A stretch of 64,000 nucleotides of DNA, from positions 496,001 through 560,000 of the forward strand of contig BCKZ01000008.1 of NCBI GenBank assembly GCA_001600815.1. Direction: 5' to 3'. The notes under the pieces were generated by a model that had not been told where the DNA came from, searched no databases, and worked only from the letters and a program-made list of their open reading frames with translations. The stretch's first letter is position 1, and every line of letters starts with the position of its first letter. This document shows, in pieces, positions 11,813 to 61,773 of the stretch. Both the position numbers and the translations under genes were made by a program. Source of the stretch: Alloascoidea hylecoeti. Its lineage: Eukaryota.

Positions 11813-13114
11813 TTAATGTTTGAAACATGACTTTGCACCAGGAATCTGAAAACTACCCTTAACAATTGGCTCAATTCTAGCATCAACAGCCGAAGCCGAC
11901 ATATTAGCCTGTGCAATTGCAATCTGACCATTATCAAAATCGTAAACGACGTAAGCACTTTTTAGAAATGTATCTCCTAAAATAGCGAAAGGAAATGGAC
12001 TTCCCACAAGTCCGAAAATGCATTTATTTTCATCTTTAGTTAGATTATCAAGAATAGCATTATTATCAGAATATGGAACTTGAAAGTCGGAAAGCTTCAC
12101 CTTAATAACAAGAGATCCAAAAATGAAATCAATTGTTCTGGGATCTGATGGTGGAAAACACTCTATTATAGTAGGAATAGGCAATGGGAAAATTCCAAGG
12201 GATATTAAAATTGGTTCAACAATAACATATGGAAAGATAGAAATTGCTGTTCCAGAATCTAAAATGGCAGGTATAAGTGCTGGATATGTAATTCCATGTG
12301 CTGTGATAGCTCCCATTTGGACAGTTGAATAACTGACTATTTCTAGGAGGTTTGGAAACGAAACGAGATCACCGGTATATGCATTACTATCAACACCACC
12401 AAAAAGAATCGATCCATGTGTTGCGTCAGATCCATTCAAAAAAATGGAGTAGGCTCGGGCACCTATAATACCAGCATCAGACAAAGCAGAGATATAGCCA
12501 CGGTGAAGAAGATGCTCTCCACTTGTTATACTATTCAAATAAAATTCGTTTGCAAGACCAAGAATACTACGTTGCATTAGTGGTGTCGTAGTTGAAAATA
12601 ACCCCATGGTTAATCCGTTTAATGTCACTCCATTCACTGTCACATCGTCTTTCATCCATTGACCAGCTCCAACACCGCTGCCAAATGGCTCAACAAATAT
12701 AGGAGAGATACAGCGATATGAACTAGAATTAAAAGGATTAAAAGTTCCAGCATCCGGACAAAAATTAGCCCCTGTTTCCAGAATTATAAGCTCAGGAGAT
12801 CCAGTATCAACCAACACACCTAACTTTTGAGGGGGGGTTCCAATTTCAATATCAAGACTGTACCAGACACCTTTATTGGTGAGTGGGACGTTTAGAGTTT
12901 GAGTACCTGATGCATCTTTATAAGCTGCATTACCCAATAGAGAATTTTCAGGCACCGTTAGATTTTTCGAAATAGATTTGATTAATGAAGATGTTTCGTT
13001 TGCAAATTCACGGTTGAAATCCAAAAGGTGATAGCCAGGACCAGAATCTGAAATAACGGTTGAGATCAGCCCCAATAAAATAATAAATGAAATTAATTGT
13101 AATTTATTCTTCAT
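11813..13114 (-). CDS. Secreted A1 (pepsin/SAP/yapsin-like) aspartic protease
   Basis: Signal peptide; IGTPPQ, DTGS and DSGT motifs; ILGDTFLKSAYVVYD; no GPI tail; flap Tyr appears replaced by Phe (VEPFGSG). Confidence 0.95.
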   Translation of the reverse strand: MKNKLQLISFIILLGLISTVISDSGPGYHLLDFNREFANETSSLIKSISKNLTVPENSLLGNAAYKDASGTQTLNVPLTNKGVWYSLDIEIGTPPQKLGVLVDTGSPELIILETGANFCPDAGTFNPFNSSSYRCISPIFVEPFGSGVGAGQWMKDDVTVNGVTLNGLTMGLFSTTTPLMQRSILGLANEFYLNSITSGEHLLHRGYISALSDAGIIGARAYSIFLNGSDATHGSILFGGVDSNAYTGDLVSFPNLLEIVSYSTVQMGAITAHGITYPALIPAILDSGTAISIFPYVIVEPILISLGIFPLPIPTIIECFPPSDPRTIDFIFGSLVIKVKLSDFQVPYSDNNAILDNLTKDENKCIFGLVGSPFPFAILGDTFLKSAYVVYDFDNGQIAIAQANMSASAVDARIEPIVKGSFQIPGAKSCFKH

Positions 13115-14297: not shown

Positions 14298-15584
14298 ATG
14301 AAGAATCATTTTTCATGGATTGCTTTATTGTGGTTAATCTCAACCGTTATTTCAGATTCTGGTCCTGGTTTTCACCGATTGGAATTCTCTCGTAGAACAA
14401 CCAATGATACACCTGCAATTCTCCAAAATACTCGATTGAAAAACCAAACCTACCTTATAAATAGCATGAAAGATACTCTAATCGCTAGAGATTCAACTGG
14501 CTCAACTCCTCGAACCACTGGTGAGGTATTAATTAATGAAAGGTGTTGGTACCATCTTGAAATTGGAGTTGGAACTCCTCCCCAAAGGATGGGCCTTACA
14601 CTTGAAATTTTATCTGCTGATCTATTTCTCGTTTCACGCGATAATATTTTGGGGGGAGAGATTACAGTGGATGATGGGGATTATGATTCTAGGCGCTCTA
14701 GTACATATCGATTTGTGTCTCAATTTTTTGTAAACAATCTTTTTGGAAGTACACGAGGTGACTGGATTAAAGATGATGTGACATTCGATGGGCATACTCT
14801 TGAAGGATTCACTATGGGATTGAGCACACAAACTACCTGGCACCATGGGGTTTTAGGTCTTGCAGGCGAAGGCCCTCTGGCTGGTTTTGGAAGTAATGAA
14901 TTTTTGGGACATCGCACCTTTCCAACTGCCTTAGTGGATGCTAATATTACAGAATCCCGATCTTTCTCAATATTCTTGAATTCTACAGATGCCACTAAGG
15001 GATCAATCACTTTCGGTGGAATTGATGTAAATGCATATACCGGCCAACTAATTACACTTCCATTACTTGGGGGACCAGGTCTTTTGACTGTTGGTCTATC
15101 TACTGTTGGAACAGGTTCAATTTCAATTCCATATTTTCTGCCAGCAATTATAGAACCCACATCACCTTTTACTACCCTACCACCTCATATCGTTGAACCA
15201 CTTAAATTAGCTCTTGGTATTAATCATATTAATGTTATGGAGTGTATCCCACCAACTGATAAGAGAACAATTGATTTCAACTTTGGGTGTCTAACTATTA
15301 AGGTTAGGCTCTATGATATGGTAATAAAACCTCCCATTGATGCCGAGGTAATATTTGGCAACACATGTGTTTTTGGCATCGTTTCGAACATCATCACTGA
15401 TGGGCTCTCTCTTTTAGGGGATACATTTCTAAAGGCAGCTTATGTTGTATATGATTTGGATAATGGTCAGATTTCAATTGCACAGGCCAATCAGTCGGCC
15501 TTGGATACTGAATCTCGGATGTTAAAAATTCCTAAGGGGTGTGATCTCTTACCTGGTGCGAAAAGATGTCTTTACTATGAGTGA
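14298..15584 (+). CDS. Secreted A1 aspartic protease homolog, predicted catalytically inactive
   Basis: Intact 428-aa paralog (VGTPPQ, ITFGGID, LLGDTFLKAAYVVYD); DTGS site reads EILS and DSGT site reads EPTS. Confidence 0.92.
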   Translation: MKNHFSWIALLWLISTVISDSGPGFHRLEFSRRTTNDTPAILQNTRLKNQTYLINSMKDTLIARDSTGSTPRTTGEVLINERCWYHLEIGVGTPPQRMGLTLEILSADLFLVSRDNILGGEITVDDGDYDSRRSSTYRFVSQFFVNNLFGSTRGDWIKDDVTFDGHTLEGFTMGLSTQTTWHHGVLGLAGEGPLAGFGSNEFLGHRTFPTALVDANITESRSFSIFLNSTDATKGSITFGGIDVNAYTGQLITLPLLGGPGLLTVGLSTVGTGSISIPYFLPAIIEPTSPFTTLPPHIVEPLKLALGINHINVMECIPPTDKRTIDFNFGCLTIKVRLYDMVIKPPIDAEVIFGNTCVFGIVSNIITDGLSLLGDTFLKAAYVVYDLDNGQISIAQANQSALDTESRMLKIPKGCDLLPGAKRCLYYE

Positions 15585-21609: not shown

Positions 21610-22875
21610 TTAAAACACAGGAGGACACAATTGCGCACCAGGAACGCCATTCTCTTCTTTAGGAATTATTTTGATCTGGGAATCAATAGCCAAGGCAGAT
21701 TGATTAGCCTGAGCAAGTGAAATCTGCGCATTATCCAAATCATAAACAACATAAGCAGCTCTTAAAAATGAATCCCCCAAAATATTAATACCTGCATTTT
21801 TAACGTTTGAAGCGAGTCCAAAAATGCATTTATTAGGACTTCCAAGTATCTTCGATTGATCAAGAGGAAAACGAGTTTGAAAATCAGAAAGCTTAACCTT
21901 AATAGTTGCACATCCAAATTTGAAATCAATTGTTCTAGTGTCTGTTTCTGGAATACACTCAATAATATTAATGATAAATGGAATACCACCGATAGCCAAT
22001 ACAATTGGATCAACAATATAATCAGGTAGGTAAGTAATAGTGGTTCCACTATCTAAAACAGCCGGTTGTAAAAGCGGAAATTCCACTCCGTTCAGAGAAA
22101 CACTATTAAGAAATACACTCAATATTCCAATTCCCTCACCATATACTGGATGTGTGGTTAAATTACCAATATACGCGTTGCTATCAACACCTCCAAAAAT
22201 CAACGTTCCTTCGGTTGCTTTAGTGGAATTCAAGTAAAGAGAATAAGCACGGGATTCTGCGAGACCAGCATCAACCAAAGCAGTTGGATAATTATGGTAC
22301 GTTCCAATTTCTAAACTTCCGATACCCGCTATACAACTTTCTGGTGCCAGACCAATAACACCATGCCCTACTGTACTGAGTAGACCTAACCCAATAGTTA
22401 GATGATTCAGAGTTAGTCCGCCAATTTTTACATCTTCTTTAATCCAATGACCAAGTGCTCCTGAGCTATCGGCATAGAGGGCGGAAAAGAAAGGAGAAAC
22501 AAACTGATATGAACTAGACTTGAATTGATCGTAAAGCCCAGACGCAGTGCAGTTTTTGGGTGAACAGAAAAAAGCGCCTTCGGTTGCAATTACCCAGAAA
22601 TCAGCAGATCCAGTGTCAATATCAAGAATAAGCTTCTGAGGTGGTGTTCCAACTTCAACTTCAAGACCATACCAATTAACTTCATTTTGAACTCTACCTA
22701 TTACAGCATTAGCATCTCCGACAGCATCAGAGGTGGTAACATTTGTAGATGTATTTCTTTGTCTTGTTCCACGAGTGAAACTCACTTGGTGAGCACCAGG
22801 AACAACATCTGCAACGACCATTGAAAGCAAACCCAATGAAGCTACCAAGGTAATTAATCGATTCTTCATATGCAT
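21610..22875 (-). CDS. Secreted A1 aspartic protease
   Basis: Signal peptide; VGTPPQ, DTGSADFWV, flap Tyr (YADSS), DSGTT, ILGDSFLRAAYVVYD; no GPI tail. Confidence 0.96.
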   Translation of the reverse strand: MHMKNRLITLVASLGLLSMVVADVVPGAHQVSFTRGTRQRNTSTNVTTSDAVGDANAVIGRVQNEVNWYGLEVEVGTPPQKLILDIDTGSADFWVIATEGAFFCSPKNCTASGLYDQFKSSSYQFVSPFFSALYADSSGALGHWIKEDVKIGGLTLNHLTIGLGLLSTVGHGVIGLAPESCIAGIGSLEIGTYHNYPTALVDAGLAESRAYSLYLNSTKATEGTLIFGGVDSNAYIGNLTTHPVYGEGIGILSVFLNSVSLNGVEFPLLQPAVLDSGTTITYLPDYIVDPIVLAIGGIPFIINIIECIPETDTRTIDFKFGCATIKVKLSDFQTRFPLDQSKILGSPNKCIFGLASNVKNAGINILGDSFLRAAYVVYDLDNAQISLAQANQSALAIDSQIKIIPKEENGVPGAQLCPPVF

Positions 22876-26717: not shown

Positions 26718-28862
26718 ATGACAATAAAAATGAAAAGTTCATTGGCTAATAGGAAAACAAAATTCGATGTTTATGACTCTCAATCTACTCAACTTTGGAA
26801 GATGTATCAAAGAGCCAAAACAAGTCTACCTTATAGGGAAAGAATGGAAAATTTGACGTGGAGGATGATGGCTTTAAATATTATTAAATCCAGATCTAAA
26901 AAGAAGCCCAATAGTACCACCCAGAAAACCAATATTACTACTCTCACAAATGATAATATTAAAACAGATCCTTCTTCCGAAGACTTTGATTACGTTGCTC
27001 ACATTAAAAAAATAGGTAGTGAGAATTATCCATCTTCTAGCGTGAATAATAATACTCGTTCTTCGAATTTATCAAATTTATTCTCAACATCAACACCAAC
27101 ATCGACATCAACTTTGGTTAACTCGGGATTTCAATTTGCTCTAGATCCTATGGTGATTGAAGGGTTTGAACAACCTCCTTCAAATATAAATAATAATCAA
27201 TTTATATCGAATTCGAATGTAAACCCAATGAACATTTATTCTCCTTATCCGGATAAAGATGCCGATAAGGACATTTTAAATTATCCTAACAATAATCAGA
27301 ATCCTACTTATAATGGACTATCGAATAAATCTTCATCTTCAACAATAACATTAAATAACAATAATAATAGCAATATTAATATTAATAGTAATCCCTCTTC
27401 TCTTTCAAACTCGGCTCATTTTACAAATTTTGGCAGTATTGACTCAATGGGAGCACAATCTGATTGGGATACTACCCCTATACAATTATCAAAAAGTAAA
27501 TTTCTTCAACAACAGCAATCTTCAATGCTTTTCTCAAATATTGACCCACAAGTTATTGTTCAACAATTAAAACAAGGTAATCTTGATCAACAACCTCAAC
27601 AACTTTTAAATTTGAATGATGAAAATTTACTAGATAATATGAACTTAAATTTACCCTTATCGTTACCAATATCAACGATAGATATACCGTCTACACAGTT
27701 AACGACAACAAATACAATGAATTTTAATCGTCTGCAGACACAAATCCCAACCCCAATACATCAAATAACATTAGATTCTTTTAATTTACCAAATGATATA
27801 ATAATGTCTGATATTAATCAACCATCAGGAATTAATGAATCATCAAATATAAATATGAAAATAAATAATACAAATTCAAGTTCAGTATCTAGAAAAAATA
27901 GTATAATTTCTAAAAAATTGAGAAATCATTCAATTACAAAAATAAGATCAAATTCTTCAACAAATTTATTAACAAGAAAATCTATTTCTTCACAAACAAA
28001 AAATAGATTAAATTCATCATCATCATCACCAAATTTAAACCAAAATCAAAATAATTCAAATTCAAATTCACCAAATACATCAATAGACAAATCAATGCAA
28101 TCACCACCAACTGAATGCTATAATTGTCATACTACAACAACTCCATTATGGAGAAGGGATCCAGATGGCCAATCATTATGTAACGCATGTGGTTTATTTT
28201 TGAAATTACATGGCGTTGTTAGACCATTAAGTCTGAAAACTGATGTGGTTAAAAGACGTAATAGAGGTGGCAATAATAATAATTTAATTTCAACATCCTC
28301 TAATAATAACAATAATAAAGGGAATTTAATAAAAGGAAATAATCAAAGGAATGCTTCATTATCTATTGCTATAGCAAATATCAGTGGAAATGATAAATCT
28401 AATAGTAACAGTAATGTGATTATAAATAAAAGGAGAAATTCTTTAATCAAATCAAAAATTACATCAGCTACATTATCACCAATAACAAATGATTCAATAT
28501 TTTCTGTAACTTCTAATTCATTTGATTCATCAAAATCAAATTTTAATAATAATGGTAGTAATAATCCTTCTCCTCTAAGTATGATGTCACCTTCATCACT
28601 TTATCCTTATAATTATCAAAATAATAATTTGGATATAATTGGAGATTCGAATATCAATACAATTTCGAATTCGAATTCGATTACAAATGGAAATGGAAAT
28701 GGAAATTCAACATTCAAACAAAATAATAGCAAGAATAAGTATCATAGTAATGATAATGATAATAATGATACTGATATGAAAATTGATAAAAAATTTGAGA
28801 TAATTGATGAAGATATGGTAATGGATGGGAATAAATGGGATTGGTTAACAATGGCGTTATGA
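26718..28862 (+). CDS. GAT1: AreA/Gat1-type nitrogen-regulatory GATA transcription factor
   Basis: N-terminal LWKMY...[10 protein letters not shown] motif; GATA finger [14 protein letters not shown]...[31 protein letters not shown]-terminal WDWLTMAL like AreA. Confidence 0.93.
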
Positions 28863-38820: not shown

Positions 38821-39710
38821 TTTTCTATCGTTCATTGATATTTATTGTACTCAATAATTAACTGTTACAATTGTATACTGATATGGGGAAAAAGTTCAAT
38901 CCAATTAACTATAAGATATATATAAGAATTAGATAAAATATTAAAAAAATGTGAAATGTATCCCTTCATCGACATTCAGAACCTATTAACAGGATTTCCA
39001 AACTTCCTATTCAGGACGAAATAAATTCTTCTCCAAAGCCAATATAGATAAAGTTATGATCTTGTCATAAGTTTGGCAACAAGTAAACATTAAAAATTCG
39101 TATAACTTGCCGTGGCATTGCTTTGTTTACTTTTTGATTGGAGAAGAAAGGAGTCCAACTTGGTGGAAAATTTACTGCTTTTATATTAGATGTTTGGAGG
39201 TTTTGGAGATGATAAAATAAGGGCTACGGTATTAGGGCTATAACGCATGGTGTGACTGCGTATATATCAGTGTATATATCAGCACGCATCCTTTGAATTT
39301 AGTTTGTTTTGTGTATCACACCTAGAAAGTTATTATTCATCAATAGTAAGATTCTTGAAACATTATAAAGTAAGTGATGAAAACTATACAACTGTTCTAA
39401 TGATGATTAAAGTGGAGATGATGTGATTATTTGGAGTCGTTCAAATAATATCTCAATATAACAATGTGATTTTTCATCAAAAGACAAAGATCCTTAGAAT
39501 AATAGATATTAAACGACGAAATATCAACAAGCATTTAAACATTCAAAATAAATGAATGAAACCCCAATTATAGTTATGAGCAATGAAGTTCAATCAATCA
39601 TTTTAACTCAGACGATATGTACTAGAGCTCAAAATATCATACATCCTCTACCTACTTTATTTATCAATTGATATTATTGGGATCATAAACTAACTTATGA
39701 ATTAGACAAA

Positions 39711-39944
39711 ATGGCTCACGAAAAAGTTTGGTACTCTCACCCAAGGAACTACGGTAAAGGATCCCGTCAATGGTAAGTGATAAATCAATATGTGTTAAAT
39801 TAAGTCATTCAATTTATTAACATTTTCTCTCATAGTCGTGTCACTGCTACATCCACCGGTGTTATCAGAAAATATGGAATTAATCTTGGAAGACAATCTT
39901 TCCGTGAAAAAGCTGCCGATATTGGTTTCCACAAATACCGATAA
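39711..39944 (+). CDS. RPS29: 40S ribosomal protein uS14/S29 (exons 39711-39772, 39836-39944), lacking three zinc ligands
   Basis: GTAAGT...TATTAAC...TAG intron; spliced 56 aa [56 protein letters not shown]. Confidence 0.95.
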
Positions 39945-40709: not shown

Positions 40710-41303
40710 ATGAGGTTTTCATTCGCTGCTCTTGCATTACTTCCTTTTGGTGTTATGGCTACTCCACCTGCATGCTTACTTGCTTGTATCGCCCAAGTCA
40801 CAAAACCAGGACCTTGCAAATCTATCGAAGATTACGACTGCGTTTGTTCCGGAACGTCTGCGAATAATATTGCTGACTGCTTAAACTCGAAATGTCCTAA
40901 TGGTAATGAACCCGCTGCTTTAAGTGCCTTTAAATCATCTTGTTCAGAACGAGGAAAAGACATTAATCTCAATATTGTTTCAAGCGGTTCTGTTTCTTCA
41001 ATCACTTCTGGACCTTCATCTCCATCTTCGAACATTGACTCAGATGCTATAACCTCAAGTTCAGATCAAGATACTATAGCTGTAGATTCGGCATCATCTA
41101 CCGAGTCAGTTCTAACAACACCAGCTGGGTCTGTGGCAGAATCTAGTAAAGCCGTTACTTCTACTACAGTTGCATCTCCATTACAGTCTCCTGTGACAAT
41201 CGCTGCTTCAGGAACAGGTATTATTGAAGGTGCTGCTACCAGACCATCAGGATCAAAATCAATTGAAGCCCTTATTGTTGCTTTGGCGGTCTTTTTATTA
41301 TAA
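40710..41303 (+). CDS. CCW14: CFEM-domain GPI-anchored cell wall protein (Ccw14/Ssr1-like)
   Basis: Signal peptide, TPPACLLAC...8-Cys domain ending SAFKSSCSE, Ser/Thr stalk, hydrophobic C-terminus. Confidence 0.88.
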   Translation: MRFSFAALALLPFGVMATPPACLLACIAQVTKPGPCKSIEDYDCVCSGTSANNIADCLNSKCPNGNEPAALSAFKSSCSERGKDINLNIVSSGSVSSITSGPSSPSSNIDSDAITSSSDQDTIAVDSASSTESVLTTPAGSVAESSKAVTSTTVASPLQSPVTIAASGTGIIEGAATRPSGSKSIEALIVALAVFLL

Positions 41304-42462: not shown

Positions 42463-43866
42463 TTAAGCGACAGAAGCACATAAAGCAGCACCAACACCAG
42501 ATCCATCTTTTGCAATTCTAATATTAATTCTTTTTTCACCAGAAACACCAATTCTATTAATTAATTTTAAAGCTTCTTGGACATTTTCATGAAATCCAGG
42601 ATAATATTGAATAACACTTCCATCAGCACCAATATCAATTAAATCATGTTTTTCTAAAGAATTTGTTTTAATAACTATACCAGCTAAAGGTATTGAAGAT
42701 AAATAAGCAGCTCTTTTTGAGATTGCTTTAACAAGAATTTTAATTGCTTTTCTTTCTTCAACAGTTGTAGGTAAATGAATTGATTGATTAAATAATAATG
42801 AAGTAATTATTTGATCAGTTGAATCATCAACTTCAATTAATGCTAAATTTGAAGAATCTAATGTCCATGGTTTGAAGAATTTTTCACCCATATCATCAAC
42901 ATTTTGAAAAATTAATTTTTCTTTATATAAATCAACTAAAGCTTGTCTTAATGTTTCACCTAAAAACATACCACTTATTCTTTTTTCAAACATATGAAAT
43001 TTTGGATTTGGAGTTAATTTATCAATTGCTTCATCATATTTTGTATTTGGTAAATATTTTAAATCATTATCAAATGAACCCCATTCAGTATTAATAACCA
43101 TTCCTTTTGTATTTTCTGGTATTGAATCCTTTGATAATTTTTTAATGTTTTCAATATCTTCCATGTAACAACCATTTGTACCTGTCCCAAATATACTACC
43201 AATCAAAGTATAACCATCTTCAGGTGTTGTTGAATAAGCACGGGACATTAATGTTCCAACAGTATCATTAACTAGAGCACTAACAATACAAGGAACCAAT
43301 TTTTTATCCAATTGATCTTGTAATAGTTTAACAACATCTTGATTAACAGTATCATCAATACTAAAAGATTTTGTCCAACGTAATAAAGTTCCTTTATTTA
43401 AAGCAGTTTGATTAACCGGGAAACTAAAAGTAAAACCAAGTTTTAATTTTTCATTACCCTCTTTAATTGAAGAAAATTGATCAGAATGATGTTGTTGTAC
43501 AAAAATTAAAATTTTTTCAGCAAAAAATTCAAATAATTGAGTTGAAGTACCAGCAAATAAATCTTTTGGTACTGGATGTTTAACATGAGTCATATGGAAA
43601 GTATTATCACCATTTAATGTTACTGAACATACTCTAAAATTTGTACCACCAAGGTCAACAGCTAAAAATAAACCTTTTTCTTTACCAGTTGGTATATCAG
43701 TTACGAAACTTGGAATCATCGGTAATCCACGTTTATTGGAGTTTGAACGAAGACCTTCATTCGCCTGAAATATAAAATGATCAACACATTTGTTGAGAAG
43801 TTCAGGAGATACCTCGAAACCTTTGGCTATCTCGGTGGCTCTATCAATTAAAGAAGATTTCGTCAT
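42463..43866 (-). CDS. GLK1: Glucokinase (hexokinase family)
   Basis: GLPMIPSFVT, DLGGTNFRVCSV, LGFTFSFP, VNDTVG, GTGTNG, INTEWG, DGSGVGAALCA; N-terminus resembles Glk1 more than Hxk. Confidence 0.9.
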   Translation of the reverse strand: MTKSSLIDRATEIAKGFEVSPELLNKCVDHFIFQANEGLRSNSNKRGLPMIPSFVTDIPTGKEKGLFLAVDLGGTNFRVCSVTLNGDNTFHMTHVKHPVPKDLFAGTSTQLFEFFAEKILIFVQQHHSDQFSSIKEGNEKLKLGFTFSFPVNQTALNKGTLLRWTKSFSIDDTVNQDVVKLLQDQLDKKLVPCIVSALVNDTVGTLMSRAYSTTPEDGYTLIGSIFGTGTNGCYMEDIENIKKLSKDSIPENTKGMVINTEWGSFDNDLKYLPNTKYDEAIDKLTPNPKFHMFEKRISGMFLGETLRQALVDLYKEKLIFQNVDDMGEKFFKPWTLDSSNLALIEVDDSTDQIITSLLFNQSIHLPTTVEERKAIKILVKAISKRAAYLSSIPLAGIVIKTNSLEKHDLIDIGADGSVIQYYPGFHENVQEALKLINRIGVSGEKRINIRIAKDGSGVGAALCASVA

Positions 43867-57105: not shown

Positions 57106-58086
57106 ATGGCAGCAAAAGCATACCTAGGACCCTATTTAACATTAAACAATGGTTTAAAGATGCCCCAGATTGGCTTTGGTGCTTGGAAAGTTCCAACCGA
57201 TAGTGCTCCTACTACAATTTACAATGCTATTAAAGAAGGATACCGATTAATTGATGGGGCTCAAGACTATGCAAATGAACAAGAAGTCGGTGAGGGTGTA
57301 AGAAGGGCAATCAAAGACGGATTGGTTAAAAGAGAAGAGTTATTTATTACAACCAAGATTTGGAATACTTTCCATGAACCAAAACATGCCATTGAATCGG
57401 CAAAGAGATCCTTGAAAGATTGGGGTTTAGAATATTTTGATTTGGTTTTAATTCATTTCCCGATTGCTCAAAAATATGTTGATCCAGCTGAACGTTACCC
57501 ACCTGGATTATTCACAGATGAAACTGCTAAAAGGATTGATTTGGAACCTGTTCCATTATCAGCTACTTGGGGTGCTTTGGAAACGTTGGTAGAATCCGGT
57601 TTAACTAAAAGTATCGGGGTTTCTAACTACGCTGCACCATTGGTTGCAGATTTATTATCTTATTCAAAGATCAAGCCTTCGGTTTTACAAATTGAACATC
57701 ATCCATATTTAACTCAACCAAGATTGGTAGAATTTGCTCAGAAAAATGGAATTGCAATTACTGCATACTCAACATTTGGCCCTCAATCATTCCTTGAATT
57801 AGGTCATGCGGTTGCTCATTCTACTCCAAAAGTTTTGGAACATGAAACTATTACCAAAATTGCGTCAAAACATGGCAAATCTCCAGCACAAGTTGTTTTA
57901 AGATGGGTGACACAAAGAGGAATTGCAGTTATTCCCAAATCAAATAATATTAATAGATTAAGAGATAACTTGACAGTTTATGACTTTGACTTGACAGAAG
58001 AAGAATTGAAGGCGATTGGAGATTTGAATATAAATTTGAGATTTAATGATCCTTATTCCTGGCCAACTGTCCCCATTTTTGATTAA
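57106..58086 (+). CDS. XYL1: NAD(P)H-dependent aldose/xylose reductase (AKR2B)
   Basis: [43 protein letters not shown]...R, LRFNDP. Confidence 0.93.
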
Positions 58087-58287: not shown

Positions 58288-59646
58288 ATGCCTGCGGAAC
58301 CGTCTACACCTCCTATGACATGTCACACCCAAATTGACGCGACAAATCCATTGGAAAAATCTTTTGGAGATCTCGACGCGTCGTCTTTCTCGCTATCATT
58401 TTCTAAGTTGGACAATATCATCATCCCCAAAACATCACCTTCAAGAAAAAGAAAGTTAGATGATAGAGATAATGAAAAATTCCTCTCAATATTACCGCTC
58501 ACTCCTTCAACCTCTAAAAAGAACAAGGGTAGAGCAATAATAATTCCTGTTTCGCCTTGTTCTCCAAATTCCCACCATTCTCTCCTAACTCCAACAAAGA
58601 CCCCAGGCAACAGAAAAAAGATCACCGATGCAATTCCATTATCCAATCCAAAATCGAAATCTTCTGCTGGTAGAGTGCTATTTAGTGTTGCACCTACCAC
58701 TGTTGGTACTGGAAGAAAACATCGAAAAGCAAGTCTTTCAATCGAACAGAAACATCAGCAGGAACAATTACACGAACAATCGTTGATCAATCAATCCGAA
58801 TTAGATACTCAGACACCACCATCATCGCCTATTTCATCGAGAATAAGAGAAAATGTTGTTAAATCCGAAAAATTATTATTTAATGAAGATGAATTCAATG
58901 AAACATCATCACCCTCTGTCTCCAATTCCTTTAAAACTTTGGATGAAACCGACACGATCTCATCTACAAATATCACGCATCTTACACCCGTTTCTAAAAT
59001 TGTATCTCCTGATTTTGTGTTACATTCTGATTTCAAGAAAATTCATGGACGATCTCCTATATCTAAGTGTGAGTCTAAAATCGATATTAATTTTGATTCT
59101 GATTCCGATTTTGAAGATGATGGTACTGCCAAAGAACAAAAATTTATAAAAAACCCATTTATTAAGGAATCAACTGCAACCTTATCTTTAACTCCTAAAA
59201 CAACAGTTAAAACGCTGAACATTTCTACACCACAAAAATCAAAGAAAAATCATAGTCCTGGAGTTGTATTTGTTTGCAAAGGAAAGAAAGTTAGAAGATA
59301 TGATATTGATTTATCAAGTTATAAACCAAAGAAACTTTTTGCTGGCTTGAAATCTGTAGAATTAAAAAAGTCTATTGATAGTTCTGATGAATTTGATGAT
59401 GATAGTGATTCTTCTTCTCCAACCTTAATTTCATCACCGACGCCAACGAAACCTCGTGAATATAAAAGAAATAGAACATCGAAGCGTTTAAGGTTTGATG
59501 TATTCAATGATGAAGAGAATAGCACTCATCGTGGTGATATAGCGACTATTTTAGATTCGGAAGAGGAAACGGATCGTGAAACACAAGCAGAAACTAGAGA
59601 ATATTTCAACAATGTTCGAACTCGAAGGAGTATATTAAAGAAATGA
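58288..59646 (+). CDS. Disordered protein rich in S/T-P sites, possibly a Sic1/Rum1-like CDK inhibitor
   Basis: 452 aa; many TP/SP sites (LLTPTKTP, TPQK); GVVFVCKGKKVRR and KPKKLF segments. Confidence 0.6.
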   Translation: MPAEPSTPPMTCHTQIDATNPLEKSFGDLDASSFSLSFSKLDNIIIPKTSPSRKRKLDDRDNEKFLSILPLTPSTSKKNKGRAIIIPVSPCSPNSHHSLLTPTKTPGNRKKITDAIPLSNPKSKSSAGRVLFSVAPTTVGTGRKHRKASLSIEQKHQQEQLHEQSLINQSELDTQTPPSSPISSRIRENVVKSEKLLFNEDEFNETSSPSVSNSFKTLDETDTISSTNITHLTPVSKIVSPDFVLHSDFKKIHGRSPISKCESKIDINFDSDSDFEDDGTAKEQKFIKNPFIKESTATLSLTPKTTVKTLNISTPQKSKKNHSPGVVFVCKGKKVRRYDIDLSSYKPKKLFAGLKSVELKKSIDSSDEFDDDSDSSSPTLISSPTPTKPREYKRNRTSKRLRFDVFNDEENSTHRGDIATILDSEEETDRETQAETREYFNNVRTRRSILKK

Positions 59647-60795: not shown

Positions 60796-61773
60796 ATGCC
60801 AGGCTACCCAGGAGATTACCTTACTTTTCACGATGGAACCAAGTTCCCTCAAATGGGGTTTGGTACTTGGAAGATTTCTCTAGAAGATACAGCTGATGTT
60901 GTCTATTCTGCAATCAAAGAAGGCTACAGACACATTGATTGCGCACAAGACTATGCAAATGAAAAACAAGTTGGTGAAGGTGTAAGAAGAGCAATTAAAG
61001 ATGGAATTGTTACAAGAAAAGAATTATTTTTAACTTCGAAACTTTGGAATACTTTCCATTCCCCGGAAAATGTTGTTAAGTTTTGTAAGAAGTCATTGGC
61101 TGATTGGGGTGTTGATTATTTCGATTTATTTTTGGTTCATTTCCCAATTGCTCAAAAATATGTTGATCCATCTGAACGTTATCCACCTGGTTTATTTACA
61201 GATGAGGCTGCCCAAAAGATTGAATTGGAGCCAGTCCCAATTTATAAAACTTGGGCTGCTTTTGAATCATTGGTTGATCAAGGTCTTGTTAAGAATATTG
61301 GTCTTTCAAACTTTACGGTTGCGCTTGTTAATGATCTATTAACTTACGCAAGAATTAAACCAGCTTTATGGCAAATTGAACATCATCCATACTTAACACA
61401 ATTAAATACAGTTAAATATGGTCAAAGTCAAGGAATAGTTATGCTTGGTTATTCTACATTTGGCCCCAGATCTTATGAAGAATTAGACAGGAATGATGAA
61501 GTTAGAGAAATTCCAAGTGTTTTAAAACATCCAGTTGTTGAAAAAATAGCTAAAGCACATAATGTTTCAGCTGCTTTGGTTATCTTAAGATGGGTCACAC
61601 AAAGAGGTATTGCATGTATTCCAAAGACTGTATTCCCAAATGAGTTAAAGGAAAATTTGAAAGCTTTCACTTTTAATTTAACTGAAGACGAAATAAAGGA
61701 AATTAACAAGTTAGATAGACATGCTAGATTTAACAATCCAATTGATTGGCCAACTGTTCCAATTTTCGATTAG
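60796..61773 (+). CDS. Second aldose/xylose reductase paralog (AKR2B)
   Basis: Same AKR motifs (DCAQDY, SKLWN, LVHFP) and identical C-terminus WPTVPIFD; cofactor loop reads IPKTVFPNE. Confidence 0.93.
   Translation: MPGYPGDYLTFHDGTKFPQMGFGTWKISLEDTADVVYSAIKEGYRHIDCAQDYANEKQVGEGVRRAIKDGIVTRKELFLTSKLWNTFHSPENVVKFCKKSLADWGVDYFDLFLVHFPIAQKYVDPSERYPPGLFTDEAAQKIELEPVPIYKTWAAFESLVDQGLVKNIGLSNFTVALVNDLLTYARIKPALWQIEHHPYLTQLNTVKYGQSQGIVMLGYSTFGPRSYEELDRNDEVREIPSVLKHPVVEKIAKAHNVSAALVILRWVTQRGIACIPKTVFPNELKENLKAFTFNLTEDEIKEINKLDRHARFNNPIDWPTVPIFD

Follow-up and report, generated by a model that had tools for sequence, protein, structure and literature searches.

The gene at positions 39711-39944 of the window, i.e., the whole 64,000-nucleotide stretch of DNA that was analyzed, is, judging by its sequence, the gene for the small-subunit ribosomal protein uS14 (Rps29), and three of the four cysteines of the zinc knuckle that is typical of this family are replaced in its product. 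This loss of ligands is real but ordinary. We estimate a probability of roughly 0.8 that the gene is the constitutive, main, zinc-free copy of cytosolic uS14 and not a conditional substitute; this reading follows from the codon bias of the gene, from the precedents in K. lactis and S. pombe, and from the fact that nothing hints at control by zinc. A broader observation is that, in a fungal-biased sample of uS14 proteins, about one in five has no four-Cys site, with at least two ligands lost at once and the first cysteine always kept, a pattern that may deserve a short comparative study.

Direct reading and splicing of the window sequence yield a gene of two exons with a coding sequence of 171 nt, which translates into 56 amino acids and a stop codon (Table 1). 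The tblastn alignment of six fungal S29 queries to this locus begins at 39711. Codon 21 is split by the intron (TG|T) and encodes the first ligand, Cys. The four ligand positions read C, T, G, S, i.e., the protein does not match the CxxC...CxxC pattern of the four-Cys knuckle, and there is no intervening His, Asp, Glu or further Cys in residues 21 to 42. The sequence-only reading had called a spliced 56-aa uS14 with C24T, C39G and C42S, and all of these residue calls are correct. Exon 2 alone (35 aa, codons 22-56) matches the Pfam family PF00253 (Ribosomal_S14) with 28.6 bits, above the curated cut-off of 27 (E 1.2e-6); for the full-length relatives P0264, P0056 and P0005, the scores are 45-50 bits.

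Table 1. Coordinates of the uS14/RPS29 gene, its zinc-ligand codons and other features of the window
Feature	Position	Strand	Description
Exon 1 of uS14/RPS29	39711-39772	+	ATG to TG (first two bases) of codon 21, Cys; sequence reading
Intron of uS14/RPS29	39773-39835	+	63 nt, phase 2 within the Cys21 codon; GTAAGT 5' site, TAG 3' site
Intron branch-like site	39815-39821	+	TATTAAC; sequence reading
Exon 2 of uS14/RPS29	39836-39944	+	Third base of the Cys21 codon, codons 22-56, TAA stop
Codon 24 of uS14	39843-39845	+	ACT (Thr), second zinc-ligand position; sequence reading
Codon 39 of uS14	39888-39890	+	GGA (Gly), third zinc-ligand position; sequence reading
Codon 42 of uS14	39897-39899	+	TCT (Ser), fourth zinc-ligand position; sequence reading
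TTAGGG hexamer	39232-39237		Single occurrence, about 480 nt upstream of the uS14 start
Zap1-type match nearest to uS14	39320		2 mismatches
CFEM protein gene	40710-41303	+	197 aa, PF05730
Glucokinase gene	42463-43866	-	
Aspartyl protease gene	11813-13114	-	PF00026
Aspartyl protease gene	14298-15584	+	PF00026
Aspartyl protease gene	21610-22875	-	PF00026
GATA-type regulator gene	26718-28862	+	714 aa, PF00320 and PF08550
Aldo/keto reductase gene	57106-58086	+	PF00248
ORF between the reductase genes	58288-59646		452 aa
Aldo/keto reductase gene	60796-61773	+	PF00248

Several other genes of the window were recognized along the way. A stretch of 11 kb holds three genes for eukaryotic aspartyl proteases (E 4e-38 to 9e-59), which represent a local protease family, and two paralogous aldo/keto reductase genes flank an ORF. 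The GATA-type protein has an AreA-like N-terminal motif and is probably a nitrogen catabolite regulator.

The zinc ligands were then surveyed across the family. In the profile search, 120 of 2126 matches were listed and, together with P0001, classified by a regular expression; among these 121 proteins, 91 are four-Cys, 25 have lost ligands and five did not match the pattern, four of which proved to be four-Cys by eye, the fifth having a mispredicted N-terminus. The ligand-losing (Cys-poor) proteins among the matches listed include those of S. pombe (C, T, S, S) and K. marxianus (C, S, D, S); in Zygotorulaspora mrakii and Nadsonia, the ligand positions are C, T, C, S. Cluster look-ups added K. 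lactis (RS29_KLULA in Swiss-Prot; C, S, D, S), Yarrowia lipolytica (C, T, C, S) and further Cys-poor forms from Cercospora, Fulvia, Zasmidium and others. The best 150 representatives from a library of 1.8 billion proteins comprise 130 four-Cys and 16 Cys-poor forms as well as four that did not match the pattern and are four-Cys by eye; one representative, P0302, has Gly at position 39. At least one ligand is missing in 20 of the 80 metagenome uS14 loci, several of which resemble protist forms, a share that is biased upward because the DNA patterns used for these loci accepted S, V or C at position 42. Seven proteins were found with a 46-aa ORF of the window, which includes exon 2, as the query; six of them have lost ligands, and the window's own protein is absent from these seven matches in the large database.

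Pooling of all distinct knuckle regions (n = 170) resulted in 136 four-Cys and 34 Cys-poor knuckles, and it should be noted that such frequencies of ligand loss are biased upward, given that five of the six rows of the query alignment were themselves Cys-poor. Among the 34 Cys-poor knuckles, two ligands are gone in 10 and three in 24, with no case of a single loss. All 34 retain Cys21 but not Cys24, and Cys is missing from position 39 in 29 knuckles and from position 42 in 29. Because 34 of the 170 knuckles in the family are also without the four-Cys site, this knuckle is typical of uS14 but does not define membership. Decay of the zinc site looks recurrent and stereotyped across fungi and other eukaryotes, and the retention of Cys21 may reflect a role in packing or in contacts with rRNA.

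The same searches captured a distinct group of Dothideomycete S29 proteins (P0004, P0028, P0036, P0040, P0050, P0061, P0064, P0067, P0070, P0076, P0077, P0100, P0112 and P0243-P0249) that are 58 amino acids long, have a lysine-rich insertion of two residues in the knuckle loop and, in most cases, the ligand positions C, T, S, A. Other Dothideomycetes captured by these searches have an ordinary four-Cys S29 of 56 amino acids; a genome with both forms would harbour a true C-plus/C-minus pair.

The glucokinase gene of the window helps to place the host. Its product has one relative at 72% identity, and the best named relatives, at 50-57%, are those of the budding yeasts [Candida] boidinii, Pichia californica, Komagataella, Kuraishia, Pachysolen and Ogataea; this makes the host a budding yeast that has no near relative among those named. 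The Pichiales-type yeasts that are nearest by glucokinase (53-57%) have a four-Cys S29, as found for Komagataella (P0010), [Candida] arabinofermentans (P0012) and Brettanomyces (P0041). Since these nearest named relatives are four-Cys, the loss in the window is not explained by mere descent from a known Cys-poor clade.

Outside the ligand positions, the window uS14 is conserved to the same degree as the four-Cys forms are with each other. It is 80% identical to the S29 of Nadsonia (P0005) over all 56 residues and 71-77% identical to the next fourteen fungal proteins, so that gapless identity to the top 15 of the 59 S29 proteins of 56 amino acids is 71-80%, with alignment from end to end. When the ligand columns are left out, mean identity to the 52 four-Cys forms of this length is 72%, compared to 73% among those forms themselves. 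The rare residues of the window protein, relative to the 59 relatives, are at positions 5, 24, 26-28, 30, 36, 39 and 42, i.e., mostly in the former zinc knuckle. In these relatives, position 24 is Cys in 52 and Thr in six, position 39 is Cys in 55 and Gly in none, and position 42 is Cys in 54 and Ser in five.

The codons of the gene carry a strong bias. Among two-fold Y-ending codons, nine of 13 end in C in uS14, while in 14 long window ORFs the figure is 290 of 1842 (Fisher p 2.6e-5). This is the pattern expected for a highly expressed gene in a genome of 31% G+C, with 13 informative codons at hand, and the uS14 gene is probably highly expressed, as suggested by its codon bias. The sequence-only reading had described the protein as well conserved and unlike a pseudogene, and the figures for identity and codon usage bear this out.

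An intron in phase 2 within the Cys21 codon was also found in all four of the loci inspected among the 80 metagenome loci fetched, two of which are Cys-poor (L006 and L070) and two four-Cys (L024 and L032). Because this intron is common to Cys-poor and four-Cys fungal loci, its position is old and conserved. The loci L006 and L070 are the best of the 80, with an identity in exon 2 to the window of only 77%, which is too far diverged for dN/dS to be meaningful.

The segment 39500-40150 was compared to contigs from three DNA runs, each of a different study, and there were no differing letters. Two of these runs are from one coded organism ("organism A") and one is from a wood-decay metagenome; the window itself may derive from any of them, and hence at most two are independent. 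In the wood-decay run (X1), the segment is on a contig of 3975 nt, again with no differences, and this run is possibly the window's own source.

The alternative that survives best holds that a four-Cys RPS29 resides elsewhere in the genome and that the window copy substitutes for it when zinc is scarce, as with RpsNB and RpsN in B. subtilis. We regard this as unlikely. If it were true, the bacterial S14 switch that is controlled by Zur would have an equivalent in a eukaryote, and the ligand loss does parallel the bacterial C-minus forms: in B. subtilis, the zinc-binding uS14 is replaced by a zinc-independent uS14 (PMC11508205, PMC13090322). Gene pairs for zinc-coordinating and zinc-free ribosomal proteins are also mentioned for Encephalitozoon cuniculi (PMC8807834). 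However, a strong codon bias suits a main, highly expressed copy rather than a conditional one, and nothing in the window points to a partner or to regulation by zinc. Using tblastn with the six S29 queries, we detected a single RPS29 locus and no second copy in the 64-kb window. The neighbours of uS14 are a CFEM protein, the glucokinase and an unnamed ORF, i.e., none of them is zinc-related; the CFEM protein, encoded just downstream, looks secreted (E 2.3e-11), with a Ser/Thr-rich tail and a hydrophobic C-terminus.

No zinc-response motif was recognized in the promoter either, although the Zap1 consensus used here is that of S. cerevisiae and may not fit the host. With this consensus, there are 29 matches in the window at two or fewer mismatches versus 31.9 expected, i.e., no enrichment, and no match near the gene is better than the nearest one, at two mismatches (Table 1); the same reservation about the fit of the consensus to the host applies to both results. 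Bacterial C-minus S14 is the long form of the protein, whereas the window gene keeps the short form of 56 amino acids, which also speaks against a substitute of the bacterial kind. A single TTAGGG hexamer upstream of the gene, which we take to resemble the Tbf1 sites in ribosomal protein promoters of non-Saccharomyces yeasts, could be due to chance, as any one hexamer could.

The number of uS14 genes in other yeasts bears on the same question. In Table 2 of PMC11508205, a single gene is entered for K. lactis, for C. albicans and for S. pombe, but two for S. cerevisiae. Going by these entries, a one-Cys uS14 is the sole copy available to the ribosomes of K. lactis and S. pombe, which speaks against a zinc-sparing paralog. 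The sequence-only reading had offered two models, a zinc-sparing paralog and a lineage-wide switch to a zinc-free protein; the second, in the form of a constitutive protein, fits the data better, whereas the first finds no support in the window, with neither a second copy nor zinc regulation.

Another possibility, which we consider very improbable, is that a remodelled metal site persists, built from Cys21 together with hydroxyls, backbone or rRNA groups. The retention of Cys21 in all 34 Cys-poor forms suggests that this residue has some role. Nevertheless, zinc is bound poorly or not at all by Thr, Gly and Ser, the stretch from 21 to 42 offers no His, Asp, Glu or second Cys, and position 39 is occupied by S, D, K, N or G in the Cys-poor forms, a variation that does not suit a conserved ligand. 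Given that Cys21 stands alone, with Thr, Gly and Ser at the other ligand positions and no substitute residue between them, a tetrahedral zinc site is not plausible.

Finally, a pseudogene or silent copy, or a mistake of sequencing or assembly in the Cys codons, is hardly credible. In its favour are the three altered ligand positions in one small gene and the absence of the stretch from the RNA runs listed; the one metatranscriptome compared (X8) likewise placed nothing on it, which is uninformative on expression. However, the frame is open with canonical splice signals and an intron position common to other fungi, similar substitutions exist in the working ribosomes of K. lactis and S. pombe, and the letter-for-letter agreement of the contigs of the three DNA runs, the non-ligand conservation equal to that among four-Cys forms and the strong codon bias together make both decay and error very unlikely.

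Under the preferred reading, a constitutive and zinc-free uS14, the absence of zinc would follow from the nature of the ligand residues. To judge from the one-Cys chains of K. lactis and S. pombe, the 56-aa protein would still occupy the uS14 site of the 40S head, and its shape would presumably be held without zinc, as in those chains, by contacts with 18S rRNA and neighbouring proteins. By analogy with the same chains, we infer that the protein is incorporated into 40S ribosomes; constitutive expression and the status of main copy are likewise inferred for the window gene.

The sequence-only reading knew of no described fungal example of such a protein. This does not hold for the sequences and structures: Cys-poor uS14 is in public records and in the solved ribosomes of K. 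lactis and S. pombe, and the fungal novelty is further undercut by Yarrowia lipolytica, Nadsonia, Zygotorulaspora, K. marxianus and many Dothideomycetes. Since two model yeasts with solved ribosomes are already Cys-poor, a claim to the first fungal C-minus ribosomal protein falls. The loss of zinc ribbons in bacterial ribosomal proteins was reportedly described by Makarova, Ponomarev and Koonin in 2001. Full-text literature searches found no paper that describes Cys-poor fungal uS14, and the stereotyped decay of the zinc site, with Cys24 lost and Cys21 kept, was not found described in the literature searched. PMC13090322, drawing on six model species, lists the CxxC motifs of Rps29 as retained across diverse eukaryotes and mentions only the bacterial C-plus/C-minus pair. 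Thus, Cys-poor uS14 is plain to see in databases and PDB entries and, as far as our searches reach, little discussed. The window gene adds one more yeast to the eukaryotes whose uS14 probably does without zinc, and K. lactis and S. pombe are ready natural controls for the role of zinc in Rps29.

Among known systems, one parallel is the bacterial C-minus S14, such as RpsNB/YhzA of B. subtilis, which is under Zur. It belongs to the same family (PF00253) and has similarly lost the zinc-binding cysteines; however, the bacterial forms are zinc-regulated, conditional paralogs that exist beside a C-plus copy, whereas no partner, regulatory motif or extension was found in the window. Among yeasts, the S29 of Nadsonia fulvescens (P0005) is the closest full-length relative found, and it shares Thr24 and Ser42 with the window protein, as does that of Yarrowia lipolytica (P0268). 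Both keep Cys39, and have therefore lost two of the four ligands compared to three in the window.

The uS14 of S. pombe (P0056), which is identical to the chain in PDB entries 9AXT, 9AXV and 9RVU, has 56 amino acids, the same Thr24 and Ser42, and an overall identity of 71%; it differs by Ser39 instead of Gly and at residues 22-23, and belongs to a distant lineage (Taphrinomycotina). The best PDB matches of exon 2 are the uS14 chains of K. lactis (17 + 4 entries, E 5e-12; RS29_KLULA, P0264; 3J80, 3J81, 3JAM, 3JAP, 6FYX, 6FYY, 5IT7, 6GSM and others). This protein, too, has 56 amino acids, keeps Cys21 as its sole ligand cysteine and is modelled in solved 40S/80S particles, but the replacements at 24, 39 and 42 are S, D, S rather than T, G, S, and the knuckle loop is unlike that of the window protein at 26-28 and 30. 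The losses in K. lactis and in the window are probably independent, because four-Cys relatives (Lachancea, Saccharomyces) lie between them, a judgement made from these relatives. With Cys21 kept and positions 24, 39 and 42 all non-Cys, as in P0264 and P0056, the window uS14 is of the one-Cys yeast type.
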